From positions 2,515,850 through 2,539,849 of the forward strand of contig CP050848.1 in NCBI GenBank assembly GCA_014873095.1: 24,000 nt of DNA. Direction: 5' to 3'. Below the pieces are notes generated by a model. That model saw only the letters and a list, made by a program, of their open reading frames with translations, did not search any database and was not told where the DNA came from. The position numbers and the translations under genes are program-made. Source of the stretch: Planctomycetales bacterium ZRK34 (GTDB lineage: Bacteria > Planctomycetota > Phycisphaerae > Phycisphaerales > Zrk34). Shown here one piece after another: positions 3 through 12,965 of the stretch (position 1 is the stretch's first letter; every line of letters begins with the position of its first letter).

Positions 3-503
3 CTGGGGCGCGACATCCCGACGTCGTACTTCGCCATCTGCGACATGCAGTATCCTTCCCGCCGCAACTTCAAAGGCCTGCTGGCCATTCACGATGACAA
101 GACCGTCGATCGGCCCAAGGAAGCCTACGCGGCCGTACAGCACCTGACGGCGGTCTTCGACGACACCGTCCAGCGCATCAAGGACTTCGACGCCGACATC
201 ACCGCCGGCGGCGAAGCGAAGGATTACACGGTGTTCGGCTACAGCGCCCCCAAGGGAACGATCGTCACGCTGTGGCGCAGTTCCGACACGCCGGGCAAGA
301 AACCCGAGGTTGAGACCGCGATCGTGACGCTGAAGAACACGACGCTGAAAAACCCTGTCTGGGTGGACCTGCGCACCGGCGATGTCTGCGCGATCGATGC
401 GTCGAATGTGAAAACCACCAGCGGCCACGTGACGATTCATGGCGTGCCGGTGTATGACTCGGTGATTCTGCTGGCTGAGCGCGATGCGATTCCGATGCGC
501 TGA
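3..503 (+). CDS. 3' end of a glycoside hydrolase gene (5' end outside window); C-terminal beta-sandwich region, paralogue of the 7200..8654 product
   Basis: Frame 3 is open from base 3 (LGRDIPTSYFAICD precedes the first Met at 45) to the stop at 501-503. NFKGLL..RPKEAYAAVQHLTAVFD and NPVWVDLRTGDVCAID..VPVYDSVILLAE align with NYKGLL..PKPAFVAYQHLCALFD and KPVLIDPLTGKAYRLD..APLLEYPLLITD of the 7200..8654 protein. Confidence 0.6.
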   Translation: MGRDIPTSYFAICDMQYPSRRNFKGLLAIHDDKTVDRPKEAYAAVQHLTAVFDDTVQRIKDFDADITAGGEAKDYTVFGYSAPKGTIVTLWRSSDTPGKKPEVETAIVTLKNTTLKNPVWVDLRTGDVCAIDASNVKTTSGHVTIHGVPVYDSVILLAERDAIPMR

Positions 504-585: not shown

Positions 586-1443
586 CTATTGAGGCGTCGG
601 AGTCTTCAGGTACCCCAGCGAGTTTAAAAACGCATCCATCTTCGCGAGGGTGTCACGGTAGAACCGTCCGCCGTGTTCGGTTGGACGGTAGAAGCCGTGC
701 TCGGCATCGTCGTAGAGATACAACTCGCTGCGTGCGCCGACGTCCTGCATCTTCTTCTGAAACGCCTCGGCGGTTTGGACACGGATCACGTGATCCTTGC
801 GCCCGAGAAACACGATGGCCGGCGGCATGCCTTTGCGGATGTTGTGCATCGGGCTGATCTGCTGCCAGTAGGCCTTGACGCGGCCGTACCCGTAGCCGCT
901 TTTGGAGTTGTCATACACGGGGTTGAACAGCACCAGGGCATTGGGCACGGGTGAGATGTTTTGATCGTCGGTGTCTTCGTTGAAGGCGTCGACCACGGCT
1001 GTGGCCGCGGCGACATGACCGCCGGCGGACCCGCCCGACGCGGCGATGCGATCGGGGTCGACACCGAGTTCATCCGCATGGGCTCGCACGTAACGGATGG
1101 CGCTCTTGCCGTCCTTGACGCACTCGATCGGGGTCGTGTGATTCCGCTCCTTGACGCGATACTCCGCCGACGCGGCCCACATGCCGCGCGCGGCCAGATG
1201 GGCGCACTGCGGATAAAACTGCGTGGGCGTGCCGCGGTTCCACCCGCCGCCGAAGAAGAACACGATCGCCGCGGCGCGGTCGCCCTCGGCGCGGCCCGCC
1301 GGTTCGAACACGTGAAGCTTCAACTCCACATCGCCGACCGTCTTGTACGTGATGATCCGCGTCGGTTGCGGCAGGGTATCCTCCGCCCGCACGTGGTCGG
1401 CGGACAGACAACACATCAGCATGAAGCAGACAACACAACGCAT
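586..1443 (-). CDS. secreted alpha/beta-hydrolase, esterase/lipase-like (probable carbohydrate esterase)
   Basis: ORF 586..1659 trimmed to the ATG at 1443, which gives a signal-like N-terminus (MRCVVCFMLMCCLSADHVRA). The longer form would overlap the upstream gene ending at 1451. Motifs: FFFGGGW oxyanion-hole type, GGSAGGH nucleophile elbow, C-terminal DDAEHGF. Confidence 0.8.
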   Translation of the reverse strand: MRCVVCFMLMCCLSADHVRAEDTLPQPTRIITYKTVGDVELKLHVFEPAGRAEGDRAAAIVFFFGGGWNRGTPTQFYPQCAHLAARGMWAASAEYRVKERNHTTPIECVKDGKSAIRYVRAHADELGVDPDRIAASGGSAGGHVAAATAVVDAFNEDTDDQNISPVPNALVLFNPVYDNSKSGYGYGRVKAYWQQISPMHNIRKGMPPAIVFLGRKDHVIRVQTAEAFQKKMQDVGARSELYLYDDAEHGFYRPTEHGGRFYRDTLAKMDAFLNSLGYLKTPTPQ

Positions 1444-1450
1444 ACGACAA

Positions 1451-2296
1451 TCAATACCCATACGCCGACGCCGGTGGATCATACTCGCCGAGGTCTTGTT
1501 GGTACATGTAAGCGGCGCGCGAACCATTGGTGGACCACGAGTGGATGTAGATGGTGTCCTTGAAGTCGACCCAACCGGCCGAGCCGTCGACGTAGACCTG
1601 GTTGCCGCCTTCGGGGCGGCCGTCGGCGTGGTTCGACTTGTGCGAGGGCAGGTCGACATAGGCGTACGGCGAGGATGAACTGCTGCCCTGGCCCCAGGCG
1701 TAGTCGATTTTGATCATGCTGTCAGTGGCGAGCACCCAACTGCCGCGCGCGTTGCTGACGGTCACGGGACTGCGCGACCGAATCCCGCCGGGGTTCGACG
1801 GGTTGTACCACTTGGTGATGCCGCCGAAGTAGGAGTAGTTGGTGGTGATGACCGGCTTGCCGGAGGAGGTGGCCTGGTACTGGGTTTTAAACTCGCGGCT
1901 GGGGCAGTCCCATACCGGGGCGTCGACGGGTGTGCCGTCGACGATGGTGATCGACGGGTCGATCTTGGCGATGGTGCCGAGCCGTTCCCATTCGCCGATC
2001 CAGTTCTTCGCGGCGTCGAATTTTGACCAGTCCTTGCTGCTGTCCGAGGCGTAAGCGCCCGAGCTGGTGATGTTCAACTGGACATTTCGCCGGGCGCAGG
2101 GGATGTAGTTGCCCTTGTTGCTGACGGTATACATGGTCGCGGCGGTGCCGATTTCGTGTAGATGCGCCGCACAGACCGAGCGCTTGGCCACCTCGCGGGC
2201 ACGACTCAGCGACGGCAGCAGAATCGCGATCAACAGCGCAATGATCGACACGACCACGAGCAACTCGATCAGTGTGAAACCTTGTCGGCGCATCAT
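1451..2296 (-). CDS. prepilin-type N-terminal cleavage/methylation domain protein (type II secretion pseudopilin-like, DUF1559-like)
   Basis: Start ATGATG at 2296 is preceded by GGAAAAG. The leader MMRRQG|[22 protein letters not shown] is a classic class III signal, followed by [18 protein letters not shown]. The C-terminus [21 protein letters not shown] resembles the H-X9-DG end of DUF1559 proteins. Confidence 0.85.
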
Positions 2297-2307
2297 TACT
2301 TTTCCTG

Positions 2308-2334
2308 AAGCCCACGGATCCAATCCGTGGGCTT
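2308..2334 (-). repeat. 27-nt perfect palindrome/hairpin, copy A (AAGCCCACGGAT-CCA-ATCCGTGGGCTT)
   Basis: 12-bp perfect stem, 2308-2319 pairing with 2323-2334. It fills the 45-nt gap between the PEP-CTERM stop (2342) and the pilin-like start (2296). Copy A matches 9893..9919 at 26 of 27 positions. Confidence 0.8.
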
Positions 2335-2341
2335 TGACTGT

Positions 2342-3592
2342 TCAATCTGAACGTCGGCGCAGTCCCATCAGGCCCAGCATCATCACGCCGGCGCCCAGCG
2401 CGGTCGGCGTCGGAATCGCCACGAGGTCGAATCCGTTGATGACGTTCGCGCCGGAGCCTGCATCGGTGATTCGGAAGATCACATCGTTCAGGCCGTCGGC
2501 CTGCAAGTAAAAGCTGCCGAAACCGAAGGGATCGGGGCTCGACCCGGTGGAGTAATCAACATTCAGCGCGCCGGTGAGGAAGGTCGATCCACCGTCGGTG
2601 CTGTAGAGGATGTCCACCGTGCCGTGATCGACCACTTTGTCGTGAAAATACCCGGTGAATTCATAGGTGCCGGCGTCGAGATTGCTGACGGTGATGTCGA
2701 GGTTCGTGGCCTGATTGAACACGAAATCGCGCAGCAGGTCGGACCTGTCAGGATCTGTCGTGACCGGCCCGCGATCGCGGTCGGGGTTTGCGCTGAAGGG
2801 GCCGACGGAAATATCGACGGTGCCGACATCAGTCGCCACGCCGGTGACACCCGACTGCGTCACGGACAGGTAGCCCGTCTGGGTGTAGCTGACGCCGGCG
2901 TCGTTGTCGCCGGACACCTCGTTGTCGTTGTCGTTGAAGTCGACGTAGAGCCCTTTGCGGCGGTCGAGCGTGAAAGCGTTGATCAGGTCCGCCTTGGTGG
3001 AGTTCGGATTGAACACGCGGACGATCACATCGTTGACGCCGTCGGCATAGAAGGAGAAGTCGCCTTTACCGATCGCGGCGACGCTGGTGCCGGTGGTGTA
3101 GGCCACGTCATCGATGACCTGCACAAAGCTGGACCCGGTGCCGGTGGTGTCGACGAACAGGTCGGCGACGCCCTGGTTGTTGCCGGAATCGTGGAAGAAC
3201 CCAGTGAACTTGTAATGACCGGCCGACAGGTCGGAGAGGGTGATCAGCAGGCCGTTGGTGGCGGCGGGGGTGAACACGAAGTCGCGGGCCAGGCCGCCGA
3301 ACCCATCGCCCGCGGTGATTGTCTCCCGATCGAAGAAGCGCGTGTCCGTACCCGAGAGGGTGACATCCACGGTGCCGCTGACGCCGAAATTCGCCGACAG
3401 GCCGGTGAAGGAATACGAATCGGTGCCGGCGTCCTGACTGCCCGATAGGCTGATGTAACCGGCGGGATGGGTGTTGTCATCGTCGCCGGCCTCTTCGAAG
3501 TCGATCATGAGAGCCGCCCGAACCGGCATGGCGATCAACATGACAAACGCCGACACGATTGCGATCTGGTAGATCCGTTGCATCATATTCAT
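2342..3592 (-). CDS. PEP-CTERM-anchored protein with two tandem copies of an unassigned beta-rich domain
   Basis: Start at 3592 (MNMMQRIYQIAIVSAFVMLIAMPVRA signal peptide; ATG at 3586 also possible), directly after GAAAGAGG. The C-terminus IPTPTALGAGVMMLGLMGLRRRSD has the sorting-signal layout: motif, hydrophobic helix, Arg cluster. Internal repeat: LARDFVFTPAATNGLLITLSDLSAGHYKFTGFFHD.. versus LLRDFVFNQATNLDITVSNLDAGTYEFTGYFHD.. Confidence 0.8.
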   Translation of the reverse strand: MNMMQRIYQIAIVSAFVMLIAMPVRAALMIDFEEAGDDDNTHPAGYISLSGSQDAGTDSYSFTGLSANFGVSGTVDVTLSGTDTRFFDRETITAGDGFGGLARDFVFTPAATNGLLITLSDLSAGHYKFTGFFHDSGNNQGVADLFVDTTGTGSSFVQVIDDVAYTTGTSVAAIGKGDFSFYADGVNDVIVRVFNPNSTKADLINAFTLDRRKGLYVDFNDNDNEVSGDNDAGVSYTQTGYLSVTQSGVTGVATDVGTVDISVGPFSANPDRDRGPVTTDPDRSDLLRDFVFNQATNLDITVSNLDAGTYEFTGYFHDKVVDHGTVDILYSTDGGSTFLTGALNVDYSTGSSPDPFGFGSFYLQADGLNDVIFRITDAGSGANVINGFDLVAIPTPTALGAGVMMLGLMGLRRRSD

Positions 3593-3599
3593 CCTCTTT

Positions 3600-4949
3600 C
3601 TACTGGGGCTGCAAAGCGGGCTTCGACAGCCCGGTGGTCTCATCGTTTTCAGGCAGCGGGGTGGCGGCGATGCCATAGGTTCCCGCCTGCGGATTGGGCT
3701 CGGCCTGAACCGGTCCGAAAGTCACGCGACCAGCCTCGGGCACATTCATCGCCCAGATGGTGTAAGGCACATCAATCGATTGACCGGGACCGATGGCGAG
3801 CGGCTTGCCGCCGGCGGCGGCGTCGAGGCCGATCTTCCAGCCGGTGTCGACAAAGCCCTGCTCGGTGACCCAGGTCGGCACCGGGCAGCGATCGCTTAGA
3901 AAGACATACAGCCGTGCGGGGCGCGACAGCGTGACGGTGACATGCAGGTCGTACTTGTTTTTGTCGGACATGGCTGTGCGGACATAGTCAGCGCCGTGCA
4001 GCGCCGCCGGCATGCCTGAATCATCCAGGCCGTTCCACTGGTAATTGCGGTCCGAGTGAGCCGGCGCGTCTTCGTTCAGCGCGTGGTGCTCGATGGTGTA
4101 TTCATGACCGCTGTTGGATTCGACGTCGACGATCAGCAGGTTCTGCCGAACGCTGGCGATGCCCTGATCGTTGAGGCTGACTTCATCACCGGCCAGGAAG
4201 TTGCGGTTCAAACCGTTGATATCCAGCACGGCCACGCGCCCTTCGATCACGCGGACGATCGTGTCGTTCGGCGGATCGACCGTCACCTCGAAGGCTGTGC
4301 CCAGGTCGACGATCGAGCCGTGCGGCGTGGCGAGGGTGAAACCCGACGCGGCGGTCGGAACGAACGCCCGCACTTCGCCATGACGAAGCTGCCCGCGATT
4401 AGGGCCGACGATTTCGAATTCACAGGGACCGACCAGATCGACCACGGCCGTGGAATCGAACATCACCTGCGCCGTGCCGGAAACCAGTCGAATCGGCCCC
4501 GCGCTCAACCGCCCGCCAAGCGAGGTCGGTTGTGAATCATCCGCGAAGACGGCGCCATGGCTGTTGGTCAACAAGGCGACGGCGCTGGGGCCCTGTACTG
4601 CCGCAGGCGCAGGCTGCTGGGGTGAGTTCGTAGTCGTGGTAATCAACCCGATCAAACCCACCAGGCAGATCAGCGCCGCCATGGCCGCGACCGGCTGCCA
4701 CCGCCAACTGTGATGCGCCGGTGACTGTGAATCGACCTCGTTGTATCCATTCCACCACGCTGAATCGTCGGACTCCGACCCGGTCGTCAGGCTGATCGGC
4801 TCGCGCAGATGCTGATCGATCACGGCGCGGTCCAGCAGTTGACGTCGCAGCGCCGGATCGCTCCGCAGAACAGTCTGCAGATCGTCAAAACGCGCCGCGG
4901 TGATGCGGTCGTCCAGGTATTCAGAAATCAGTTCGGCGTGATCAATCAC
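3600..4949 (-). CDS. FecR-type transmembrane anti-sigma factor with an extra uncharacterised C-terminal domain
   Basis: GTG start at 4949 overlaps the sigma stop (GTGATTGA). N-terminal anti-sigma helix region (ELISEYLDDRITAARFDDLQTVLRSDPALRRQLLD). One TM segment (VAAMAALICLVGLIGLI). FecR-like core (GFTLATPHGSIVDLGTAFEVTVDP..VRVIEGRVAV). About 170 further residues have no motif I can assign. Confidence 0.8.
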   Translation of the reverse strand: MIDHAELISEYLDDRITAARFDDLQTVLRSDPALRRQLLDRAVIDQHLREPISLTTGSESDDSAWWNGYNEVDSQSPAHHSWRWQPVAAMAALICLVGLIGLITTTTNSPQQPAPAAVQGPSAVALLTNSHGAVFADDSQPTSLGGRLSAGPIRLVSGTAQVMFDSTAVVDLVGPCEFEIVGPNRGQLRHGEVRAFVPTAASGFTLATPHGSIVDLGTAFEVTVDPPNDTIVRVIEGRVAVLDINGLNRNFLAGDEVSLNDQGIASVRQNLLIVDVESNSGHEYTIEHHALNEDAPAHSDRNYQWNGLDDSGMPAALHGADYVRTAMSDKNKYDLHVTVTLSRPARLYVFLSDRCPVPTWVTEQGFVDTGWKIGLDAAAGGKPLAIGPGQSIDVPYTIWAMNVPEAGRVTFGPVQAEPNPQAGTYGIAATPLPENDETTGLSKPALQPQ

Positions 4950-5478
4950 CGGTCTTCTCCTGCGGCGGGGTCAACCGGTCCTGAATGCAGCGGGCCAGGG
5001 TTTCACGGATGCGGTGCAGCGCCACGTAAATCGCATTGGGCGTCATGCTCAGTCGGTCGGCCATCTTCTGGATCGAAAGATTCTCCCGGTAGCGCATGGC
5101 GATGATGCTTCGCGAGCGGTCGACCAAGGCTTCGAGGCACTCGGCCAGCGCCAGCTTGCGATCGGTCATCTGATCGGTCAGCAGCTCGGCGTCAGCGGCA
5201 AGCTGATCCATCAGGTCCGGGGCGAAGACCAGCCGATCGCGACGGTGGCGGCGGAGGTGATCGACCGCTTCGTGACGGGCGATCGCCATGACCCACGACA
5301 TGAACGGCCGCTCGGGGTCGTACTGATCGATCTTCGTCGCCGCCTTCAGGGCCGCGGACTGCAACACGTCTTCAGCATCCGAGGCCGACCGCAGAATCGT
5401 CAGCAGATACGTCATCACCACCGGCTGGGCCTTGACCCAGTGGCGGGCAAACAGTTCATTGCGTTTCTGCTCTGTCAT
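4942..5478 (-). CDS. ECF (group 4) RNA polymerase sigma-70 family factor
   Basis: Region 2 (DAEDVLQSAALKAATKIDQYDPERPFMSWVMAIARHEAVDHLRR) and region 4 HTH (LSIQKMADRLSMTPNAIYVALHRIRETLARCI). The ATG at 5478 is preferred over the TTG at 5517 listed in the ORF track. Confidence 0.85.
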   Translation of the reverse strand: MTEQKRNELFARHWVKAQPVVMTYLLTILRSASDAEDVLQSAALKAATKIDQYDPERPFMSWVMAIARHEAVDHLRRHRRDRLVFAPDLMDQLAADAELLTDQMTDRKLALAECLEALVDRSRSIIAMRYRENLSIQKMADRLSMTPNAIYVALHRIRETLARCIQDRLTPPQEKTGD

Positions 5479-5568
5479 GCCTTCTACCGTAAGATACTGA
5501 ACTGCATCGTGTTGCAAAACATCTGCAACCTTGTCCGAGCTGCGATGGCACGCTGTGCCGTCAATACA

Positions 5569-5594
5569 TACGTCAGGGCCGACTGTTTCTTACA
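5569..5594 (-). promoter_or_regulatory. candidate ECF-type promoter of the sigma/anti-sigma operon (TGTAAG-N16-CGTA)
   Basis: Minus strand reads TGTAAG (5594-5589), AAACAGTCGGCCCTGA (16 nt), CGTA (5572-5569). The 13 fixed positions and the spacing are identical to the divergent site at 5636..5661. Confidence 0.55.
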
Positions 5595-5635
5595 ACGTTT
5601 CGGTGGGTTTTTTTCTGCCTTTTTATCAACGGGCC

Positions 5636-5661
5636 TGTAAGAAATGTGTCGCTGCATCGTA
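5636..5661 (+). promoter_or_regulatory. candidate ECF-type promoter of the GH28 operon (TGTAAG-N16-CGTA)
   Basis: Plus strand reads TGTAAG (5636-5641), AAATGTGTCGCTGCAT (16 nt), CGTA (5658-5661). It sits about 55 nt upstream of the GH28 ATG at 5716. It is the mirror partner of 5569..5594. Confidence 0.55.
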
Positions 5662-5715
5662 CGACCTGTCAGAGGCTTGCGTAATCGACGCGGCAACCAG
5701 CGACCGGAGGCTTGC

Positions 5716-7185
5716 ATGTTTGTCGGACGGGCTGTCAGCAGGGGCGTGCGGGGGGTAGGGTGGTTGATGTTTGCGATGGTGGTGGTCGGGTTGTGCCGAC
5801 CTTTGAGCGCGGAGATCGATCCGCGGTTGGATGTGGCGCGCGATGCACCGGCCGAGATCGCCCCGCTGAATACGCCATTCGACATGCCGCAACTTCAGCG
5901 GCCGAAGTTCGCCGACCGGACGTTCAACATCCGCGACTACGGGGCTGAACTCGGCGGCGAGAAGATGTGCACCGAGGCGATCGCCAAAGCCATCGACGCC
6001 TGCGCCAAAGCCGGCGGCGGGCGCGTGCTGGTGCCCGAAGGCGACTGGCTGACCGGGCCGATCCATTTGCAAAGCAACGTGAATCTTCATCTGGCCGACG
6101 GCGCGGTCGTGCGGTTCAGTCAGAAATTCGAAGATTACCTGCCCGTCGTGCTGATCCAGCGCGGCGGCGTGCGATGCTACAACTACTCGCCGCTGATCTA
6201 CGCGCGCGATTGTGAGAACATCGCCGTCACCGGCGAAGGCGACGCCACGCTGGACGGGCAGGGCAAAGTCTGGTGGCCGTGGAAGAAAAAGCAGCCGGGC
6301 ATGAAATGGCTGCTGTCAGATGAAGGCGGCAAGGCCCCGCTGGAAGAGCGCGTCTTCGGCACGCCCGAGCAGGGGGTGCGCCCGCCGTTCGTGCAGTTTT
6401 ACAGTTGTCGCAACGTGCTGCTGGAAGGCTTCACGATTACGAACACGCCTTCGTGGACACTGCACCCGGTGTACTGCGAAAACGTGATCGTGCGTCGGCT
6501 GAATGTACTCACCTACGGCGCGTACAACGGCGACGGCATTGACCCCGATTCGTGTCGCAACATGCTGATCGAGTACTGCTACTTCGACAGCGGCGATGAT
6601 TGCGTCGTGCTCAAAGCCGGTCGAAACCACGACGCCTGGGCGGTCGGTATCCCCTGTGAAAACATCGTGATCCGCCACTGCGCGATGCGGCACGGCCACG
6701 GCGCGATGACGATCGGCAGTGAGATGTCCGCCGGCGTGCGCAATGTGTTGGCCCACGATCTGATCGTCAACGGCACGCAACGCGCCATCTATGTAAAGAC
6801 TCAGCCCGGGCGCGGCGGCATCGTCGAGAATATCCACGTCCGCGATGTCGACATCCTCGGCGTCGGCGGCCAGGCGATCTACCTGAATACACGCTACACA
6901 TCAGGCAACCCGGACTCGCGCCTGCCGATCCTGCGCAACATTCACATCAACAACGTCCGCTGCGAAAAGGCCAAGCGCGCCATCAAAATCCTGGGCCTGT
7001 CCGAACAGTGGATCGAAAATGTCAGCTTCACCGACCTGAAGATTCACGCGGACAAAGGCGTCGAGACGCGCTACGTTCGCGGGCTGCGCTTTGATCGGGT
7101 GAAGATCATCACGGACGATTCGCCGGTGTTCACCATGCAGGACACCGAAGTGATTAAACCTGCTTCCGACTTACCTTCCAACTGA
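5716..7185 (+). CDS. glycoside hydrolase family 28 (polygalacturonase/rhamnogalacturonase-like), secreted
   Basis: The ATG at 5716 is preceded by GGAGG with a 6-nt spacer. Signal-like N-terminus (GWLMFAMVVVGLCRPLSA). Beta-helix GH28 signature set: FNIRDYGA, NGDGIDPDS, SGDDCVVLK, HGHGAMTIGSE, RAIYVKT. Confidence 0.9.
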   Translation: MFVGRAVSRGVRGVGWLMFAMVVVGLCRPLSAEIDPRLDVARDAPAEIAPLNTPFDMPQLQRPKFADRTFNIRDYGAELGGEKMCTEAIAKAIDACAKAGGGRVLVPEGDWLTGPIHLQSNVNLHLADGAVVRFSQKFEDYLPVVLIQRGGVRCYNYSPLIYARDCENIAVTGEGDATLDGQGKVWWPWKKKQPGMKWLLSDEGGKAPLEERVFGTPEQGVRPPFVQFYSCRNVLLEGFTITNTPSWTLHPVYCENVIVRRLNVLTYGAYNGDGIDPDSCRNMLIEYCYFDSGDDCVVLKAGRNHDAWAVGIPCENIVIRHCAMRHGHGAMTIGSEMSAGVRNVLAHDLIVNGTQRAIYVKTQPGRGGIVENIHVRDVDILGVGGQAIYLNTRYTSGNPDSRLPILRNIHINNVRCEKAKRAIKILGLSEQWIENVSFTDLKIHADKGVETRYVRGLRFDRVKIITDDSPVFTMQDTEVIKPASDLPSN

Positions 7186-7199
7186 TCAGGAGTCTGCCC

Positions 7200-8654
7200 G
7201 TGCAACCGCTCAGTCGCCGTCGTGTGATGCAACAGGGTCTGGCCGCGTCGCTGGCCTGTGGACTGTCGCCGAATCTTCCTCGCCTGCTGGCTGAAGAGGC
7301 CGCCGCTGAGATCACGGACAAGCCGTATGTGTTTGAACTGCCGGCAGCCGGGCGCATCATGCCGCGGCCGAGCAAGGCGATCGCCTCGTCGGGGCTTTCG
7401 GTCGGATTTGAAACGCTCGACCGCCAGCATTTTGACCCGACCAAGACCTACGGGCCGCTGTCGAAGCTCGGCGTCAAGTGGGCGCGCTGCCAGACGGGGT
7501 GGTGCCGCTGCGAGAAGGAAAAGGGCAAGTACACGTTCGACTGGCTCGACGAGGTGGTCGATTCGCTGCTGGCGATCGGCGTGCAGCCGTGGTTCAACCT
7601 CGGGTACGGCAATCAGCTCTACACGCCGCGCGCCGATGAGACCGCGGTGGGCTGGGCGCCGATTTTCGATGAAGAGCCCCGCCGGGCGTGGGTCAACTTC
7701 ACCCGCGCCATCGCCGAGCACTTCGCCGATCGCGTCAAGTGCTGGGAGATCTGGAACGAGCCGAACATTCGCGGCTTCTGGAAGCCGAACAAGCCCGACC
7801 CCGTCGACTATGCCGCGCTGGTCAAGCTCACCGCGCCGGAGATTCGCCAGCGCGTGCCCGAAGCGGTGATCATCGGCGTGGCGTCGGCGCACATTCCGAT
7901 GAACTACATCCAGACGTGTTTCGAGCAGGGCATGGGTGACCACATCGACTGCCTGTCGTACCACCCCTACCGCCCGCAACCCGAAGCCGGCTACGAAGAC
8001 GAAATCAACAAGCTGCGCAAGATCGTCGACGCGCACAACCCGAAGATCCGCCTCTGGCAGGGTGAAAACGGCGCCCCGTCCAAGGGCGGCAAAGGCAGCG
8101 CCGGCGCCCTGTCGAATCTCAACTGGTCCGAGACGAGACAGGCCAAGTGGCTCACACGCCGCATCCTCAGCGATCTGCGCCTCGATATCGAATTGACCAG
8201 CTACTTCCACCTGGTCGACCTGGTCGGCTACCGCGGCATCACCAACTACAAAGGCCTGCTCCGCGGCGCTGACTACTCGCCCAAGCCCGCCTTCGTCGCC
8301 TATCAGCATCTGTGCGCCCTGTTCGACCACGATGCCAAACACGACCCGGCGCTGACGCTGGACCTGGTCGGTGAATCCAAAACGCACATGCTCGACGCGG
8401 GATTCACCCGCAAGGGATATGCGCTGTATGCGTACTGGATGCCGGCGAGTCTGTTCGAGGCGTGGGCGGCGAGGCCGATCCGTTTGAGTCTGCCCCATCG
8501 CGCCGATGCCCAACTGCAAAAGCCGGTGCTGATCGATCCGCTGACCGGCAAGGCCTATCGGCTCGACGCATCAGACCGCACCGACAAAACGTTGACCGTT
8601 CAGGCTCCGCTGCTGGAGTACCCCCTGCTGATCACCGACCAGAGCCTGCTGTGA
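7200..8654 (+). CDS. clan GH-A (TIM-barrel) glycoside hydrolase, GH39/GH5-like, with Tat-type leader
   Basis: GTG start at 7200 lies 7 nt after AGGAG and 14 nt after the GH28 stop. Twin-arginine leader (SRRRVMQQGLAASLA). Acid/base motif CWEIWNEPN and nucleophile-type WQGENGAP. C-terminal beta-sandwich. Confidence 0.75.
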   Translation: MQPLSRRRVMQQGLAASLACGLSPNLPRLLAEEAAAEITDKPYVFELPAAGRIMPRPSKAIASSGLSVGFETLDRQHFDPTKTYGPLSKLGVKWARCQTGWCRCEKEKGKYTFDWLDEVVDSLLAIGVQPWFNLGYGNQLYTPRADETAVGWAPIFDEEPRRAWVNFTRAIAEHFADRVKCWEIWNEPNIRGFWKPNKPDPVDYAALVKLTAPEIRQRVPEAVIIGVASAHIPMNYIQTCFEQGMGDHIDCLSYHPYRPQPEAGYEDEINKLRKIVDAHNPKIRLWQGENGAPSKGGKGSAGALSNLNWSETRQAKWLTRRILSDLRLDIELTSYFHLVDLVGYRGITNYKGLLRGADYSPKPAFVAYQHLCALFDHDAKHDPALTLDLVGESKTHMLDAGFTRKGYALYAYWMPASLFEAWAARPIRLSLPHRADAQLQKPVLIDPLTGKAYRLDASDRTDKTLTVQAPLLEYPLLITDQSLL

Positions 8655-8682
8655 GCGGGTCGACAACCGGAGCGACCGTTTG

Positions 8683-9612
8683 ATGAAGCAATTGTCATGT
8701 GTGCTGATGCTGCTGGGTGTGTTGGCGTCGAACGTCGCGCTGGGCGCGGGTGAATCGACCGCGCCGAAGCCGACGTTCTCCAACGTGCCGTACGGCCCGC
8801 ACGAAAAAAATGTCCTCGACTTCTGGCAGGCGCCCGGCGAAGGGCCTCACCCGCTGCTGATCTGCATCCACGGCGGAGGCTGGATCAACGGCAGCAAGGC
8901 CGACTGGACCGATTCGGGTCGATACCCCGTCCGGCCGCCGCAGGCCTTTCTCGAACGCGGCATCTCCTGCGCCACGATCAACTATCGGCTCACGCCCGGC
9001 TCGCCGCTGCCGGCTCCGGTTCACGACGCCGCCCGGGCGGTGCAGTTTCTCCGATCCAAGGCCAAAGACTGGAACCTGCGCACCGACCGCTTCGTACTGT
9101 TCGGCGGCAGCGCCGGAGCCTGCACATCCATGTGGCTCCTGCTGCACGACGACCTGGCCGACCCGTCATCATCCGATCCGATTCTGCGACAGTCGACGCG
9201 CGTCGCCGCCGCCGGCACATGGATCGGACAGACCAGCATCGATCCCAAGGTCGTCGCCGACTGGCTGGGCCCCAACGGCATCAAGCACTCAATGATCGCC
9301 GCGGCCGTCGGCCAGCGCGACATCCAAACCGTGCTCGAACACTACGACCAGTACCGCGCCCTGTACCAGGAGTTCTCTCCGATCAATCACGTGGACGCCG
9401 CTGATCCGCCGCTGTTCATGAGCTACAGCGGCAACATGAAGCTCCCGGCCACCAGCGCGGGCCACGGCATTCACCATCCCCTGTTCGGCGTGAAGATGAA
9501 ACAAAAGTCCGACCGCCTCGGCCACGAATGCTACCTGGTGATCCCCGGCGTCAACACCTCATCGAAGTATTCCAACATCAACGATTTCCTCTTCGACAAA
9601 CTGCTGAAGTGA
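8683..9612 (+). CDS. secreted alpha/beta-hydrolase, esterase/lipase-like (probable carbohydrate esterase)
   Basis: ATG at 8683 (the TTG at 8680 is the ORF-track start). Signal peptide MKQLSCVLMLLGVLASNVALGA. Motifs: ICIHGGGW oxyanion-hole type, GGSAGAC nucleophile elbow, late GHGIHHP. Confidence 0.8.
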   Translation: MKQLSCVLMLLGVLASNVALGAGESTAPKPTFSNVPYGPHEKNVLDFWQAPGEGPHPLLICIHGGGWINGSKADWTDSGRYPVRPPQAFLERGISCATINYRLTPGSPLPAPVHDAARAVQFLRSKAKDWNLRTDRFVLFGGSAGACTSMWLLLHDDLADPSSSDPILRQSTRVAAAGTWIGQTSIDPKVVADWLGPNGIKHSMIAAAVGQRDIQTVLEHYDQYRALYQEFSPINHVDAADPPLFMSYSGNMKLPATSAGHGIHHPLFGVKMKQKSDRLGHECYLVIPGVNTSSKYSNINDFLFDKLLK

Positions 9613-9668
9613 CCCGCCCCCCATCGGCATGTCTGTACCAGGACCGCGCCGCGGCCCGTTTGTGCCAT

Positions 9669-9716
9669 AAAAAAATCCCGCGTTGACCTTCAGTAGGAGG
9701 GGAAGATCAACGCGGG
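9669..9716 (-). terminator. rho-independent terminator (minus-strand orientation) closing the 9951..10778 transcription unit
   Basis: 10-bp stem CCCGCGTTGA(9677-9686)/TCAACGCGGG(9707-9716). On the minus strand it is followed by A then U7 (complement of A7 at 9669-9675). Confidence 0.65.
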
Positions 9717-9892
9717 CGGAGGAGAGAAAAAAAGGCGCAGAACGATTAAGTATCGAATTGAGCAACTTTCATGCCAAACTCAAAAACAGGCTTTGCGGGC
9801 CACAGGTACGGGTTTGGATATGACGGATGATGTCCACAAGTACCATTCCGGGTCCAGGACTGTGCCAATGTGGCCACACGGGTCGATGAACA

Positions 9893-9919
9893 AAGCCCAC
9901 GGATTCAATCCGTGGGCTT
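9893..9919 (-). repeat. 27-nt perfect palindrome/hairpin, copy B (AAGCCCACGGAT-TCA-ATCCGTGGGCTT)
   Basis: 12-bp perfect stem, 9893-9904 pairing with 9908-9919, located 31 nt downstream of the PEP-CTERM stop at 9951. It differs from copy A (2308..2334) only at one loop base. Confidence 0.8.
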
Positions 9920-9950
9920 CGGTGTGTTGGTGTGATTTCAGGCGAGCTGA

Positions 9951-10778
9951 TCAGGCTCGGCGGCGGGGTCTGCGGAGGGCCAGGCCGCCCAGGGTCGCCA
10001 GGGCGAGGCCGATCGTGCCGGGCTCGGGAACGACGCTCAGGCGGATCGCGCCGATGGCTGACCAGGTGCCGGCGCCTTCGGTATCCGTGGTGCGGACGCT
10101 CAGCGTAGAGCCGGTGAGCAGCAGATTACTGACGCTCATGTAGCGGGCGTTGTTGTTGCCGTCGCGAATCCCCTGAAAGCCCTTGGTCTGCGTGGTCATC
10201 CCGGTCCAGCCATCCCCGGTGGAAGCGGACCCGTCTTTTTCCAGAACGGTGAAGCCGGACCAGCTCGAGCCGCCGTCGAGTGAGTATTCGTAGAAGCCTT
10301 CCGATGTCGCGGTGACGCGCGAAGTCCACACGTCGACACTGGCGACTTCGCCGGGTGTCAAGCCGCTGAAGGTCATGGTGAACGATTCATTGTTGGTGTT
10401 GGTGCTGGTGTAGAAGTAATCGCCGGCGGCGCCGGTGTTGGCCAGTGAGCCGTCGGTCGTGACCCACGAGGGGCCGCCGGAGGCGTTGTTGAACACCGCC
10501 GCGCCACCGTTGCCGGAGTCGGTGATGGTGCCGGACTTGTTCAGCGTCACGCTGGTCGGGGCGAGGCTGTAATCGTTGTGGATCGCACTGCCGTTGACCT
10601 CCGCCGGCGTGGCATAGATGTTCCATGCATTGCTGCCGCCGGGGTATGACCCGCTGTCGGTGGTATTGAAATCCACCAGGAAAGTCTCAGCCATGACATG
10701 GTGAGCGCCGAGCAGAATCACGACAGCAGACAAAAACAGCACAAGCAGTTGATGTGGGTGTCTCATCGCTTTCCTCAT
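9951..10778 (-). CDS. PEP-CTERM-anchored secreted protein, single beta-rich domain related to the 2342..3592 repeats
   Basis: Signal peptide (LLVLFLSAVVILLGAHHVMA). An alternative ATG at 10766 sits 5 nt after GAGGA. Canonical C-terminus VVPEPGTIGLALATLGGLALRRPRRRA. FLVDFNTTD and FTMTFSGLTPGE echo LYVDFNDND and LDITVSNLDAGT of the 2342..3592 protein. Confidence 0.8.
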   Translation of the reverse strand: MRKAMRHPHQLLVLFLSAVVILLGAHHVMAETFLVDFNTTDSGSYPGGSNAWNIYATPAEVNGSAIHNDYSLAPTSVTLNKSGTITDSGNGGAAVFNNASGGPSWVTTDGSLANTGAAGDYFYTSTNTNNESFTMTFSGLTPGEVASVDVWTSRVTATSEGFYEYSLDGGSSWSGFTVLEKDGSASTGDGWTGMTTQTKGFQGIRDGNNNARYMSVSNLLLTGSTLSVRTTDTEGAGTWSAIGAIRLSVVPEPGTIGLALATLGGLALRRPRRRA

Positions 10779-10832
10779 TCCCGGGATTTGAAACGTAGCC
10801 TCAACTTGGTCCGAACAAATCCAGTGGCTGAT

Positions 10833-10862
10833 AGTTTAACGCATGAATTTCGTCACAGTCAA
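10833..10862 (-). promoter_or_regulatory. candidate sigma-70-type promoter for the 9951..10778 gene
   Basis: Minus strand reads TTGACT (10862-10857), 18 nt, TAAACT (10838-10833), about 55 nt upstream of the start codon. Confidence 0.4.
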
Positions 10863-10908
10863 TATCTTTTTACCAGTTTGAGGGGCTGTGCGCCTTGTTT
10901 GCGGTCGT

Positions 10909-10940
10909 AAAAAAACCCATGGCCGCAGACCATGGGTTTT
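10909..10940 (-). terminator. rho-independent terminator of thiC
   Basis: Stem AACCCATGG(10914-10922)/CCATGGGTT(10930-10938) with a 7-nt loop. On the minus strand it is followed by a U7 run (complement of A7 at 10909-10915). It lies 23 nt after the thiC stop. Confidence 0.75.
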
Positions 10941-10962
10941 GGGGTTGTGTTGTGAAGCAGGG

Positions 10963-12840
10963 TCAGATCGTCGAGTCGTGTTTGGACAAGCCGTGGGCGG
11001 GGCGGGTGTCCAGGTCGACGAGGGTTTCCTGAATCTTTTTGGCTTCGTCGGCATCGACGTAGTCGCTGTGACAGGCGGGCTTGGCATCATCCGACGCTTC
11101 GCTTTGCTCAGCCTCCGGCTTGGTTTTGCTGGCGAGTTTGTGGATCTGATCCGGGCTGAGCACGCCGCGGTTTTTGAGGATTTCCTGCTGCTCGGGGGTC
11201 AGGGCAGCGGTGATCTTCGCCTTCTTGTCGGGGGTGAAGCCGTCGGCTTTGCCGCTGGCCCACTCGGTGATCTCCTTGGAGATGCGGACGCTGCACCAGT
11301 CGTGGCCGCACATGGCGCAGAAGTCGGTGTCGACGTCGAGGTCTTCATCGTGATACGCGCGGGCGGTGTCGGGGTCGAAGCTCAGTTCGAAGTGCTTCTC
11401 CCAGTTCAGCGCGGCCCGGGCACGGGTCAATTCGTCATCGCGATCGCGCGTGCCGGGGATGCCCAGTGCGATGTCGGCGGCATGGGCGGCGATCTTGTAA
11501 GCGATGCAACCCTGTTTGACGTCTTCGCGCTTGGGCAGGCCGAGGTGTTCTTTCGGCGTGACGTAACAGAGCATGGCGGCGCCGTGGTAGGCGGCGTTGG
11601 TCGCGCCGATGCAACTGGTGATGTGGTCGTAACCGGGGAAGATGTCGGTGACCAGCGGGCCGAGCACGTAGAAGGGCGCGCCGTGGCAGACGGTGCGCTG
11701 GTACTTCATGTTGTATTCGATCTGGTCCAGCGGCACGTGGCCGGGGCCTTCGACCATGACCTGCACGCCGCATCGCCAGGCGCGTTCGGTGAGTTCACCG
11801 ATGGTCTGCAGTTCGAGAAGCTGAAGGTCGTCCGTGGCGTCGGCGAGTCCGCCGGGCCGGCAGCCGTCGCCGATCGAGAAGGTGACGTCATGACGGCGCA
11901 GCACATCGCAGATGTTTTCCCACGCGGTGTACATCGGATTCTGCTGATTGTGCGTGAGCATCCACTTGGCCAGCAGCGACCCGCCGCGCGAGACCAGGCC
12001 GATCAGGCGGCTTTTCGCGTAGCGCAGATGTTCCATCAGCACGCCGGCGTGAACGGTGAAATAGTCGACGCCCTGGGCGGCCTGATGCTCGAGTGTATCG
12101 AGGATGATCTGCTCGTCGAGGTCTTCGATCTTGCGGCCGATGATCATCGAGTAGATGGGTACGGTGCCGATGGGAACCGTCGAGTTCTGGATGATCGCGG
12201 CACGGGTGGCGTCGAGGTCGCCGCCGGTCGACAGGTCCATGACGGTGTCGGCGCCCCAGCGCTCAGCCCACTTGAGCTTTTCGACTTCCTCATCGGTCGA
12301 TGATGAGACCGGCGAAGCGCCCATGTTGGCGTTGACCTTCGTCTTGGAGGCGCGGCCGATGGCCATCGGGTCGAGGTTGTACTTGAGGTGGTGAATGTTG
12401 GCGGGAATCACCATGCGGCCGGCTGCGACTTCATCGCGCACCTGCACGTCGGTCAGGTGCGTCTCGCGATCGGCGACGCGCTGCATCTGCGGCGTGATCG
12501 TGCCGAGGCGCGCATGCTCGAGTTGGGTGATCGGGGTGAAGTCTTTGGGGTAGACGACGGTGCGTGACTTGCCGTTTGCCTCGGTGAAGGTGGTCGTCTG
12601 GTGCGTCGGACTTAAGTCCGACGCGCCGGCGTCGGTGTTCGTGGACCAGCCTTCGGGCAGGAAGTCCCATGCGGTCTTGTCGGACACCGCGGGGATGTTC
12701 GGCGTGTCCGGCGAACTGAACATGTACGGGCCGCCGATGTCGGGCTTACGCGCGAATGAACCGGGCGTGGTGACGTCGGGGCTGTTGCCGGGGTTGGTGA
12801 AGCTGACGGGACGATGAAATGGATCGGTATGCGAAATCAT
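10963..12840 (-). CDS. thiC: phosphomethylpyrimidine (HMP-P) synthase ThiC, radical-SAM
   Basis: Highly characteristic blocks: [73 protein letters not shown]-terminal cluster [12 protein letters not shown]. Preceded by a TPP riboswitch. Confidence 0.97.
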
Positions 12841-12845
12841 GAAGG

Positions 12846-12955
12846 GTTCGCCTTCCTACGCAGCTCGCGGCGGGCACAAAGCCCGAGCTTGCTGATCAGG
12901 TTCCAAGGGACTGTCTCAGCCCGCCACCCGTGTGTGACGGACACCCCTGGCGAAC
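12846..12955 (-). promoter_or_regulatory. TPP (THI-box) riboswitch in the thiC leader
   Basis: Minus-strand RNA has a P1 helix GUUCGCC...GGCGAAC that encloses GGGGUG, CUGAGA, CCUUGGAACCUGAUC and GCGUAGGAAGG in the canonical order. The P1 3' strand ends 5 nt before the AUG and abuts the AGGAAGG Shine-Dalgarno. Confidence 0.9.
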
Positions 12956-12965
12956 ATGTTCAATC

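Follow-up and report, generated by a model that had tools for sequence, protein, structure and literature searches.

The locus described here would be one instance of a planctomycetal sigma-gated cassette for glycan sensing and surface display, wired in this case to hydrolases of acidic, acetylated glycans, a reading to which we assign a probability of roughly 55%. What was observed directly comprises the genes and the folds of their domains, the conserved synteny and a conserved bidirectional motif. The cassette seems to turn on the adjoining pectin-type enzymes, and the reading further supposes that plant polysaccharides act as inducers, that glycan is bound and that expression depends on the sigma factor.

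Organization of the locus

The window, that is, the whole stretch of 24,000 nucleotides analyzed, comes from Planctomycetales bacterium ZRK34, a marine planctomycete (genes QNN22725-QNN22727). The eight genes of the preliminary description are all present as ORFs at the places and in the order given there, with the domains assigned to them (Pfam and NCBIfam profiles). On the minus strand, the order is ECF sigma factor, anti-sigma factor, PEP-CTERM-like protein, prepilin-type protein and esterase, and the divergent plus strand carries a GH28 enzyme, a GH39-like clan GH-A enzyme and a BD-FAE esterase. The features are as follows:

45..503, plus strand: 3'-terminal part of a second GH39-like gene (C-terminus 96% identical to that of the GH39 gene in sister contig L006)
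586..1443, minus strand: exported alpha/beta-hydrolase carboxylesterase (BD-FAE/Abhydrolase_3), last gene of the sigma operon
1451..2296, minus strand: prepilin-type (pseudopilin-like) protein (N_methyl PF07963, TIGR02532)
2308..2334, minus strand: 12-bp hairpin in the spacer that separates the pilin-like gene from the PEP-CTERM gene (dG -20.8 kcal/mol)
2342..3592, minus strand: secreted PEP-CTERM-like protein (no Pfam match)
2345-2416, minus strand: PEP-CTERM-like sorting signal, PTP variant (sequence alignment)
2963-3523 and 2414-2974, minus strand: two copies of a 'DRDRG...LLRDFxF...TGYFHD' beta-sandwich domain (family HMM)
3600..4949, minus strand: FecR-type anti-sigma factor, single-pass, 449 aa (Pfam FecR)
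4803-4949, minus strand: its cytoplasmic helical domain (aa 1-49)
4638-4697, minus strand: its TM helix (aa 85-104)
4146-4583, minus strand: its FecR beta-domain (aa 123-268)
3603..4133, minus strand: its C-terminal beta-sandwich, Cdom (aa 273-449), a candidate sensor domain
4942..5478, minus strand: ECF sigma factor (Sigma70_r2 and r4_2; 178 aa with the ATG at 5478 as start)
5569..5594, minus strand: promoter-like motif TGTAAGAAA-N13-CGTA, oriented towards the sigma operon (pattern scan)
5636..5661, plus strand: motif TGTAAGAAA-N13-CGTA facing the GH28 operon (pattern scan)
5716..7185, plus strand: GH28 exo-galacturonosidase-like enzyme with signal peptide (Pfam GH28, 106 bits)
7200..8654, plus strand: GH39-family (clan GH-A) glycosidase with a putative Tat leader, read by eye (Pfam GH39, 39.4 bits, cutoff 26)
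8680..9612, plus strand: exported BD-FAE-type esterase (BD-FAE, 96.9 bits)

The 8-nt overlap claimed between the sigma and anti-sigma genes is read directly in the sequence (GTGATTGA), and the gaps of 7, 45 and 7 nt in the minus-strand operon and of 14 nt between the GH28 and GH39 genes follow from the coordinates. This close gene spacing makes co-transcription within the operons plausible. The hairpin described in the 45-nt gap is supported by its folding energy (z = -4.68, with equal folding in 0 of 200 shuffles), and no T-run comes after it, being in this respect unlike an intrinsic terminator. The sigma factor has an alternative start (TTG at 5517), the sister contigs calling 178 aa, and belongs to the Rhodopirellula/Verrucomicrobium family TIGR02989 (148.7 bits, cutoff 124.55). 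For the GH28 gene, the ORF start at 5644 was discarded, being located inside the promoter motif, and gene calls in sister contigs give 489 aa (start at 5716).

The left edge of the window cuts the locus, which continues beyond it. In L006, a 98%-identical sister contig, a pair of PEP-CTERM (PTP variant) and prepilin genes is located upstream of the second GH39-like gene on the same strand. Moreover, the layout of the ZRK34 locus is shared by several independently assembled marine metagenome contigs, and in a sister strain a sulfatase is added at the operon end.

Recurrence of the four-gene cassette

A survey of gene neighborhoods, left by the preliminary description as a check on its proposal, reveals that the order sigma, anti-sigma, PEP-CTERM and pilin-like gene recurs in related genomes. 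Orthologous loci with the cassette are L001, L003 and L009, four cassettes are found in tandem in L010, and more occur in loci L013-L037, L051 and L053. A PEP-CTERM or prepilin gene lies within the next two genes at 20 of the 24 independent anti-sigma anchors that are followed by a gene, and these marks are concentrated in the near genes (27/38, vs 9/75 of the far genes; Fisher p = 4e-10). The cassette of ECF sigma factor, FecR anti-sigma factor, PEP-CTERM protein and DUF1559-type pseudopilin is widespread in planctomycetes.

The genes around it are another matter. Carbohydrate esterases or glycoside hydrolases adjoin cassettes in L003, L009, L010, L051 and L053, no CAZymes lie next to the cassette in the orthologous locus L001, and the neighbors at 17 loci (71 genes) belong to 100 different Pfam families. 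Dockerin- or adhesin-type surface proteins are frequent beside cassettes. Because the neighboring enzymes vary by locus, what is conserved is the cassette of four genes and not a "PUL", and the proposal of a self-contained polysaccharide utilization locus is not sustained.

A motif common to both operons

The same promoter motif had been claimed to face both operons, and exactly two matches are found in the 24 kb, with at least two matches in 0 of 100 shuffles. Being common to both, the motif links the sigma operon with the divergent hydrolase operon. In L003, an identical motif is located upstream of the sigma gene, and a copy with one mismatch and an N14 spacer faces the divergent orthologue of the ZRK34 plus-strand esterase (74% identical), the pair being retained in both orientations where the proteins are about 56% identical. 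When 424 kb of loci were scanned with a relaxed pattern, the motif appeared only in the ZRK34-type locus and L003, each having it in both orientations. No promoter dyad is common to the regions upstream of 24 diverse sigma genes, so the motif evidence is limited to two lineages. In ZRK34, the sigma factor would be the one that reads this motif.

The anti-sigma factor and the surface proteins

The AF2 model of the anti-sigma factor (pLDDT 87) places its FecR part close to the cell-surface signaling domain of PupR (PDB code: 6ovk; Foldseek, rmsd of 2.0 over 121 columns), and this part also superposes on a second structure (PDB code: 4m0h). The extra C-terminal domain noted in the preliminary description turned out to be a 6hpd-like beta-sandwich for which no Pfam model exists, no match being obtained even at E = 10. 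This Cdom family has 1,846 cluster representatives (444 below 1e-30), nearly always C-terminal in proteins of 450-550 aa, and FecR is present in 60 of 60 sampled members; the domain is also found in free-standing PEP-CTERM proteins without FecR. Its sequence matches the C-terminal domain of a GH2 glucuronidase (PDB code: 6hpd, residues 885-945; E = 9e-6 to 3e-5), which indicates that both domains are homologous, and its fold matches this domain and GH138 (PDB code: 6hzf), these being CAZyme accessory domains. To our knowledge, no ligand has been demonstrated for the 6hpd domain. Also, the sensor position is modular, with Laminin_G_3, Laminin_B or CBM96 replacing Cdom in cassettes of the same type; this variable domain would be lectin/CBM-like.

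In the PEP-CTERM-like protein, the internal duplication proposed before is confirmed by a family HMM (5e-35 and 8e-92). Of the sorting signal, the PEP-CTERM-like character stands but the exact PEP motif does not, since it reads IPTP...RRRSD. This PTP signal has no score with PEP-CTERM HMMs, and in the alignment close homologues share IPTP at the motif column, where more distant ones have VPEP. The predicted fold of the repeat points to two CBM-like beta-sandwich domains: the AF2 model, of middling confidence (pLDDT 66), resembles tandem CBM22, CBM35, CBM32 and discoidin domains (Foldseek, E down to 9e-9), structural matches of beta-sandwiches being generic. Only nine homologues were found by a word search of 5.8 billion proteins. 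The protein may bind glycan at the surface. The window holds further PEP-CTERM proteins, one with the adhesive domain pAdhesive_15 (17051-18160).

The pilin-like protein (100% identical to ZRK34 QNN22725.1) is not a special member of the locus. It belongs to a very large PVC family of DUF1559-type pseudopilins, for which over 7,400 homologues were counted, PF07596 being a frequent annotation among them. A role for it in the locus is putative.

The hydrolases

The GH28 enzyme is very close to solved structures (PDB codes: 3jur and 5olp, E = 1e-103) and scores 402 bits with the NCBIfam BT4155-type alpha-D-galacturonidase model, below the equivalog cutoff. The minus-strand esterase matches solved esterases (PDB codes: 5ao9 and 7bfn, E = 1e-64), and the plus-strand BD-FAE esterase shows the most consistent link with the cassette of all the hydrolases. 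The best reading is that these hydrolases target an acidic, acetylated glycan. The closest solved relative of the GH39-like enzyme is PslG (PDB codes: 4zn2 and 5bx9, E = 3e-23 over aa 82-462). PslG is a GH39 that processes the exopolysaccharide Psl, and in Pseudomonas the substrate of PslG-like enzymes is an exopolysaccharide made by the cells themselves.

Proposed mechanism and alternatives

In the proposed mechanism, the anti-sigma factor would span the inner membrane, its N-terminal helices holding the sigma factor. The beta-sandwich after the periplasmic FecR domain would sense either a piece of glycan or a partner protein loaded with glycan, the signal thus being a glycan, and the sigma factor would then be freed, presumably through the kind of regulated proteolysis seen in other FecR systems. 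Once free, it would read the two back-to-back TGTAAGAAA-N13-CGTA promoters, one driving its own operon (sigma, anti-sigma, tandem CBM-like protein with PEP-CTERM-type anchor, pseudopilin and carboxylesterase) and the other the GH28 exo-galacturonosidase, the PslG-like GH39 and the BD-FAE esterase.

The relation to PslG leaves room for remodeling of the cell's own matrix in place of foraging: the locus could act on its own exopolysaccharide or surface coat, for example in attachment or detachment, and not on external plant or algal glycans. PEP-CTERM/exosortase systems are reportedly associated with exopolysaccharide production (Haft et al. 2006), and the additional PEP-CTERM proteins of the window, that with pAdhesive_15 included, and the surface proteins beside cassettes would fit. 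However, the GH28 enzyme is very close to catabolic enzymes, the two deacetylating-type esterases fit catabolism, the sister strain has a sulfatase at the operon end, and no glycosyltransferase or polysaccharide export genes are present among the ORFs and profile matches of the window, which makes this explanation improbable. That the sigma cassette and the hydrolase genes are unrelated units lying side by side by coincidence, the repeated motif not being a promoter, would agree with the heterogeneous neighbors of the cassette and with L001, where CAZymes are not kept. Nonetheless, this is very improbable given an exact motif with the same spacing in both orientations, its retention in L003 beside an orthologous esterase, its confinement within the 424 kb scanned and the common layout of the metagenome contigs.

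A further alternative concerns the signal input, which could be the PEP-CTERM protein, the pseudopilin or both, binding the ligand on the cell surface or in the periplasm and contacting the C-terminal domain of the anti-sigma factor. The conserved neighbors of the anti-sigma gene are indeed these genes and not enzymes, the anti-sigma factor has no transducer-contacting subdomain, and no TonB-dependent receptor is found in the window (ORFs and profiles). Also, Cdom occurs inside free-standing PEP-CTERM proteins beside pseudopilin genes (e.g. L039), a hint of like-with-like domain contacts, and PF07596 (DUF1559) was first classified as a solute-binding-type family (PMC2754498). On the other hand, PEP-CTERM/pseudopilin pairs exist without the sigma/anti-sigma pair (L006, 15954-17671; L039), no covariation is seen between the types of PEP-CTERM protein and of anti-sigma C-terminal domain, and regulon members are expected downstream in an autoregulated operon anyway. 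Such an input is thus rather doubtful.

The four-gene cassette is apparently undescribed, no paper on such a sigma/anti-sigma/PEP-CTERM/pseudopilin arrangement having been found in a literature search covering about 8 million papers. Were the surface proteins the input, they would take the role that the TonB-dependent transducer has for FecR and PupR. In these classical systems, the FecR domain is followed by the part that contacts the transducer, whereas in the ZRK34 anti-sigma factor this position is occupied by the beta-sandwich Cdom.

Gene organization of the locus

The eight genes proposed in the preliminary description are found in place, the ORF list giving five tightly packed genes on the minus strand and three on the plus strand, with identities taken from Pfam and NCBIfam.

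Table. Genes of the locus (coordinates, strand, assignment)
4942-5478, minus: ECF sigma factor (TIGR02989, 148.7 bits; cutoff 124.55)
3600-4949, minus: FecR-domain protein, the anti-sigma factor (PF04773, 24.7 bits; cutoff 24)
2342-3592, minus: PEP-CTERM-like protein (no family match in Pfam or NCBIfam)
1451-2296, minus: prepilin-type protein (N_methyl, TIGR02532)
586-1443, minus: BD-FAE/Abhydrolase_3 esterase (91.6 bits)
5716-7185, plus: GH28 (PF00295, 106.3 bits; cutoff 22.9)
7200-8654, plus: GH39-like enzyme (PF01229, 39.4 bits; cutoff 26)
8680-9612, plus: BD-FAE esterase (96.9 bits)

The sigma factor consists of sigma-70 regions 2 and 4 only (PF04542, 55 bits; PF08281, 35 bits) and passes the cutoff of the Rhodopirellula/Verrucomicrobium subfamily model TIGR02989. 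Its overlap with the anti-sigma gene can be read directly, with the stop of the sigma gene and the start of the anti-sigma gene both falling in GTGATTGA. The hairpin described for the gap of 45 nt that separates the PEP-CTERM gene from the pilin-like one is also present (12 bp, 2308-2334, minus strand; dG -20.8 kcal/mol, z = -4.7). It is not read as an intrinsic terminator, because no T-tract follows it; a scan with the terminator consensus did no better in the window than in shuffles, and no Rfam family was matched there. Such a hairpin could give the PEP-CTERM and pilin-like products different levels via transcript stability or processing. The public record of ZRK34, a complete genome of 5.71 Mb from a strain that we assume to be in culture, gives QNN22725-QNN22727 no more than the labels prepilin-type, hypothetical and FecR domain protein.

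Structure of the anti-sigma factor

The anti-sigma factor was modeled with AlphaFold from an alignment of 60 sequences (mean pLDDT 87). The predicted structure comprises N-terminal helices (aa 4-49), a TM helix (aa 85-104), a beta-domain (aa 123-268) and a separate beta-sandwich (aa 273-431). The cytoplasmic anti-sigma helices, single TM helix and periplasmic FecR domain of a FecR-type anti-sigma factor are all recognized, according to PF04773 and the model, and the conserved DLGTxF motif is found. By Foldseek, the middle beta-domain superposes on the cell-surface-signaling domain of PupR (6ovk), with an rmsd of 2.0 Å over 121 columns, and also matches a Bacteroidales anti-sigma factor (4m0h).

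Both the model and Foldseek bear out the extra C-terminal domain of the preliminary description as this separate sandwich at aa 273-431 (Cdom). It matches accessory domains of the GH2 beta-glucuronidase 6hpd and of 6hzf, a GH138 enzyme acting on rhamnogalacturonan II. Every Foldseek match of this region is an accessory beta-sandwich of a CAZyme, with no STN domain among them, and the PupR match covers only about 121 columns. Moreover, a Cdom profile aligns to residues 885-945 of 6hpd (E = 9e-6 to 3e-5), and both have the pattern LPxxLxxA/SxYVxT...YVxxDDxVPxPxxLxxxxEDTG in common. Pfam gives no match, even at E = 10, either to Cdom or to the repeat domain of the PEP-CTERM protein. Profile-profile comparison detects no homology between these two, and the idea of one domain common to the anti-sigma factor and the PEP-CTERM protein is set aside.

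When 1.84 billion representatives were searched exhaustively by HMM, 1,846 Cdom proteins were returned, 958 of them below 1e-10 and 444 below 1e-30. Nearly all are proteins of 450-550 aa that carry it at their C-terminal end, and the 60 members sampled all carry FecR (60/60) and otherwise nothing notable. Given this size, placement and constant association with FecR, Cdom is, judged from sequence, a large family of candidate anti-sigma sensor domains that lacks a Pfam model, and it deserves a family model of its own. Cdom also occurs in short, secreted, FecR-less proteins that end in a PEP-CTERM signal, sometimes with a pseudopilin gene directly after.

Table. FecR-less proteins with Cdom and a PEP-CTERM signal (comparison locus, coordinates)
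L039, 7827-9098 (DUF1559 pseudopilin gene directly 3')
L041, 950-2446
L042, 2153-3424
L045
L047, 6253-6897
L050

The PEP-CTERM-like and pilin-like proteins

A word-indexed search with the PEP-CTERM-like protein gave nine homologues, those with a named source all being planctomycetal. Their alignment reveals a domain of about 185 aa that is present twice and has DRDRG, LLRDFxF and AGxYxFTGYFHD motifs, followed by a tail in which Pro-x-Pro comes first, then a hydrophobic helix and then an Arg cluster. The tail of the window protein, IPTPTALGAGVMMLGLMGLRRRSD, has no PF07589 or TIGR02595 match at E <= 0.01, and the Pro-x-Pro columns read IPTP or LPTP in close relatives and VPEP in distant ones. 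The aligned VPEP homologues suggest that the protein carries a putative signal of PEP-CTERM type in a PTP variant, which would account for the missing HMM matches. Among 30 cassette-linked PEP-CTERM proteins, 16 score with PF07589, and the 30 as a group are diverse in content (seven with dockerin, two with LamG and one each with CBM96, a GDSL lipase and an adhesive domain).

The AF2 model of the window protein, of middling quality (pLDDT 66), predicts two beta-sandwiches whose best PDB fold matches (lowest E, 9e-9) are tandem CBM22, Xyn30D CBM35, CBM32 pairs and discoidin domains; its family profile has no match among PDB sequences. The suggestion that this protein is "possibly glycan-binding" therefore stands at the level of the predicted, CBM-like fold and not beyond it.

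The window contains several other PEP-CTERM proteins and is rich in surface and lectin-type genes. Tails with [ILT]PTP, a hydrophobic helix and RRR occur at 2345-2416, at the C-terminus of 17051-18160, in the Planctomycetes MAG locus L001 (3459-4760) and in the sister contig L006 (16772-17671), and VPEP or TPEP is kept within the same window by 9951-10778 and 22105-22803. The PTP tails may be the sign of another class of sorting signal, possibly served by a separate exosortase paralogue. The PTP-variant protein at 17051-18160 (minus) bears a pAdhesive_15 (ice-binding-like adhesive) domain, E = 4e-38, and the PEP-CTERM protein at 22105-22803 (minus), which has no Pfam domain, adjoins a Laminin_G_3 (ConA-like lectin) protein at 22985-23971 (minus).

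The pilin-like protein has the N-terminal G|FTLIELLVV motif of prepilins and exceeds the cutoffs of PF07963 (32.3 bits; cutoff 21.2) and TIGR02532 (29.5 bits; cutoff 16.3). More than 7,400 homologues from Planctomycetes and Verrucomicrobia were scored, many with PF07596 (DUF1559), and its identity to thousands of PVC proteins is 36-45%. The window copy itself reaches only E = 0.077 with PF07596 (13.5 bits; cutoff 23.3), the domain is borne by homologues that align over the full length at 36-41% identity, and the C-terminus of the window copy (GGN-x-V-x-V-DGS) is typical of the DUF1559 / H-X9-DG family. With several paralogues encoded in ZRK34, the protein is, on these comparisons, a member of a very large PVC family of pseudopilin-like proteins and not a one-off. 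We know of no established function for the DUF1559 (PF07596) family.

Recurrence of the four-gene cassette

The gene order of the minus-strand operon is kept in relatives for its first four genes, which recur in L001, L003, L010, L051, L053 and the survey described below, but the enzymes vary between loci. In L001, at 43% identity, the sigma, anti-sigma and tandem-domain genes are accompanied by an uncalled but clearly homologous pilin-like gene, and no CAZymes adjoin the cassette. The orthologous locus L003 has the same first three genes, after which the contig breaks off just inside a prepilin gene. Aeoliella straminimaris (L009) carries, on one strand, a sigma factor, an anti-sigma factor with Cdom and a DUF1559 pseudopilin, and its divergent genes encode an alpha/beta-hydrolase (dockerin-like repeats, VPEP tail), two proteins of the DRDRG/YFHD domain family with one copy each, and another PEP-CTERM protein. 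Four sigma / FecR anti-sigma / PEP-CTERM / pseudopilin cassettes stand in tandem in a Thermoguttaceae MAG (L010, 1-19391), where the two anti-sigma factors scanned end in Laminin_G_3 and Laminin_B. Between these cassettes lies a PEP-CTERM protein with a DRDRG/YFHD copy after an unassigned N-terminal region.

For the survey, 39 metagenome loci were anchored solely on Cdom, and all loci were annotated with HMMs and motif rules built for the purpose. A PEP-CTERM and/or prepilin gene lies within the next two genes for 20 of the 24 non-redundant FecR anti-sigma genes that have at least one downstream gene on the same strand. Counted per gene, the mark is borne by 27/38 near genes versus 9/75 more distant ones (odds ratio 18, Fisher p = 4e-10). 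Among metagenome loci, which were unselected for PEP-CTERM or prepilin genes, such a gene follows in at least 11/15, the true share possibly being higher, as several contigs stop at that point. In several exceptions (L004, L026, L038), PEP-CTERM genes are instead found divergent from the sigma gene. A scan of one genome per species with the PEP-CTERM family gave only three loci and did not recover ZRK34 itself.

Two further genomes with the cassette (L051, L053) have AXE1, GH43-like, GDSL and DUF6807 genes as neighbors. DUF6807 lies directly downstream of the cassettes of these Pirellulales-type genomes (L051, 9569-10639; L053, 13145-14647), one being fused to a GDSL esterase. Across 17 loci, 71 unlabelled neighbors matched 100 Pfam families, each of which occurs in two genes at most, including GH2, CBM60, sulfatase and aldose epimerase as well as transporters, proteases and oxidoreductases.

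In about 8 million searchable full texts, as distinct from subscription literature and database notes, no description of the cassette, of Cdom or of the promoter motif was found, nor does the main text of the ECF reclassification paper mention the cassette. Except for two domains, the individual families are all known already. What appears to be new is the four-gene cassette, the abundant Cdom, which PEP-CTERM proteins and a GH2 enzyme also have, and the conserved bidirectional motif.

The divergent promoter region and the hydrolases

One motif was said to face both operons, and TGTAAGAAA-N13-CGTA does occur twice, pointing outward, in the 237-bp intergenic region.

Table. Motif copies from the scan of the window
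5569-5594, minus: TGTAAGAAA-N13-CGTA, sigma side
5636-5661, plus: TGTAAGAAA-N13-CGTA, GH28 side

These are the sole matches in the window with two mismatches allowed, and none of 100 shuffles had two or more. The plus-strand copy overlaps an ATG at 5644, so the GH28 start must be 5716, where the gene calls of sister contigs also place it. At about 56% protein identity, L003 has the exact motif upstream of its sigma gene and a second copy in the opposite direction, with one mismatch and N14 spacing. The gene that faces this second copy is the orthologue, 74% identical, of the third plus-strand gene of the window, the BD-FAE esterase. A relaxed scan (at most one mismatch, spacer of 12-15 nt, CGTA or CGTC) of all fetched DNA, 424 kb, found the motif only at divergent regions of the window type and of L003, in both orientations each time.

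This comparative evidence argues for a single regulator that would drive transcription in both directions and, by analogy with autoregulated ECF operons, we infer that it would be the sigma factor encoded there. A search of the 5' regions of 24 diverse sigma genes from cassettes gave no shared promoter dyad above the shuffled background, so either the motif is lineage-specific or the dyad search is too crude.

The enzyme at 5716-7185 is assigned by homology to GH28, a family of right-handed beta-helix proteins, and matches exo-poly-alpha-D-galacturonosidase 3jur and 5olp at E = 1e-103; in NCBIfam it scores best with the model for BT4155-type alpha-D-galacturonidase, under the equivalog cutoff. 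The clan GH-A protein is a member of GH39, a (beta/alpha)8 family, and among solved structures comes nearest to PslG, which it matches over aa 82-462, most of its length (E = 3e-23). The esterase at the operon end (586-1443) matches the solved esterases 5ao9/7bfn at 1e-64, and the two esterases of the locus are only about 27% identical to each other. Together, these enzymes would be consistent with an acidic, acetylated glycan that is deacetylated and exo-hydrolyzed.

The flanks differ between strains. After the plus-strand esterase, the 98%-identical strain has a sulfatase and ZRK34 another PEP-CTERM gene. In this interval (window 9613-10962 versus L006 3598-5336), marine metagenome contigs have the sulfatase and then fliD, and ZRK34 the PEP-CTERM gene and a ThiC-like gene. 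The latter, a 625-aa ORF at 10963-13176, resembles ThiC by eye, and neither a TPP riboswitch nor any other RNA family was detected upstream of it at Rfam gathering thresholds. Beyond the left edge of the window, as seen in L006, a PEP-CTERM/pseudopilin pair without sigma and anti-sigma genes precedes a second GH39-like gene.

Proposed mechanism and alternatives

The best-supported reading of the locus is an ECF/FecR signaling module whose anti-sigma factor bears its own exchangeable, lectin- or CBM-like sensor. The signal would be received by this C-terminal domain, and the module would autoregulate the sigma operon and drive the divergent hydrolase operon via the shared promoter. The PEP-CTERM protein and the pseudopilin would be its conserved outputs, a matched surface binder and a fiber or piston component, and the hydrolases would be lineage-specific additions to the cassette.

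The main rival keeps the same genes and places reception elsewhere, with the PEP-CTERM protein or the pseudopilin relaying the signal to the anti-sigma factor. Another rival concerns the substrate, the hydrolases then remodeling the matrix of the cell itself; the likeness of the GH39 enzyme to PslG and the association of PEP-CTERM systems with exopolysaccharide speak for it.

Extending the module with a built-in sensor to the whole superphylum is a tentative step, which we consider possible but rather unlikely. The four-gene unit would then be a sense-and-display system of PVC bacteria in general, so far undescribed, in which the lectin-like sensor (Cdom, LamG, Laminin_B or CBM96) is exchangeable, each paralogous cassette answering to one glycan and its matched surface binder and pseudopilin forming a substrate-specific apparatus of capture or uptake, a planctomycetal counterpart of SusC/SusD. 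If true, the very large DUF1559 family and planctomycetal PEP-CTERM proteins would thereby gain a first function.

Planctomycetes play a major part in degrading polysaccharides in the sea and in soil. To our knowledge they have no SusC/SusD systems, and we know of no account of how they sense and capture glycans, nor of an assigned function for DUF1559 pseudopilins and PEP-CTERM proteins, two of the largest planctomycete-specific sets. Mentions of DUF1559 in the full-text literature searched are very few. The locus ties both sets to a defined regulator, a candidate promoter motif, a very common, putative anti-sigma sensor domain without Pfam model and recognizable hydrolases.

Comparison with known systems

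As in FecI/FecR/FecA (PupI/PupR), an ECF sigma factor is translationally coupled here to a single-pass anti-sigma factor with an anti-sigma domain and a periplasmic FecR domain. However, the window lacks the TonB-dependent transducer: no ORF of that size and no domain match is present in the 24 kb, and none was found in L001-L010, L051 and L053. C-terminal to the FecR domain, the anti-sigma factor has a beta-sandwich of about 175 aa related to CAZyme accessory domains, and no STN or transducer-contacting subdomain was detected among its Foldseek matches; the conserved neighbors are a PEP-CTERM protein and a pseudopilin, and the putative targets are glycan hydrolases, whereas those of FecIRA are iron uptake genes.

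Bacteroidota PULs of the ECF240/ECF10 type are under ECF sigma/anti-sigma control with a SusC-like transducer (PMC7826278, PMC7671368). They resemble the cassette in having a FecR-type pair beside glycoside hydrolases and esterases, with many paralogues per genome, presumably one per substrate. In contrast, the sensor of the cassette is apparently built into the anti-sigma factor, and its surface parts are PEP-CTERM-anchored proteins and pseudopilins. The description of the locus as non-SusC/SusD agrees with the window and the related loci, where no SusC/SusD genes occur. Membership in either group fails because neither a TonB-dependent transducer nor a SusC/SusD pair is present, although by components FecIR and the ECF/anti-sigma pairs of Bacteroidota PULs are the nearest systems.

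With the PEP-CTERM/exosortase proteins (TIGR02595, PF07589), the window protein shares a signal peptide, Pro-x-Pro, a hydrophobic helix and an Arg cluster, differing in its IPTP motif, which those HMMs leave unscored. Known PEP-CTERM regulators are two-component systems of the PrsK/PrsR type and not ECF/FecR pairs. The pilin-like protein has the prepilin cleavage/methylation leader and the C-terminal motif typical of the DUF1559 / H-X9-DG family, whose systematic placement behind sigma, anti-sigma and PEP-CTERM genes is not described in the searchable literature.

By mechanism, the nearest system would be, by analogy, sigma-I/RsgI of Acetivibrio (Clostridium) thermocellum. As Nataf et al. and Kahel-Raifer et al. 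are said to have reported in 2010, its paralogous anti-sigma factors end in different carbohydrate-binding modules; the system reportedly senses polysaccharides and drives genes for surface-displayed, dockerin-bearing proteins that degrade glycans. Dockerin domains are likewise present in 7/30 cassette-linked PEP-CTERM proteins. Nonetheless, the families are unrelated by Pfam and NCBIfam, being here ECF instead of SigI and FecR instead of RsgI_N, and the carbohydrate-sensing domain of the cassette is a putative one. Moreover, since ZRK34 is diderm, sensing would take place in the periplasm, unlike in the clostridial system.
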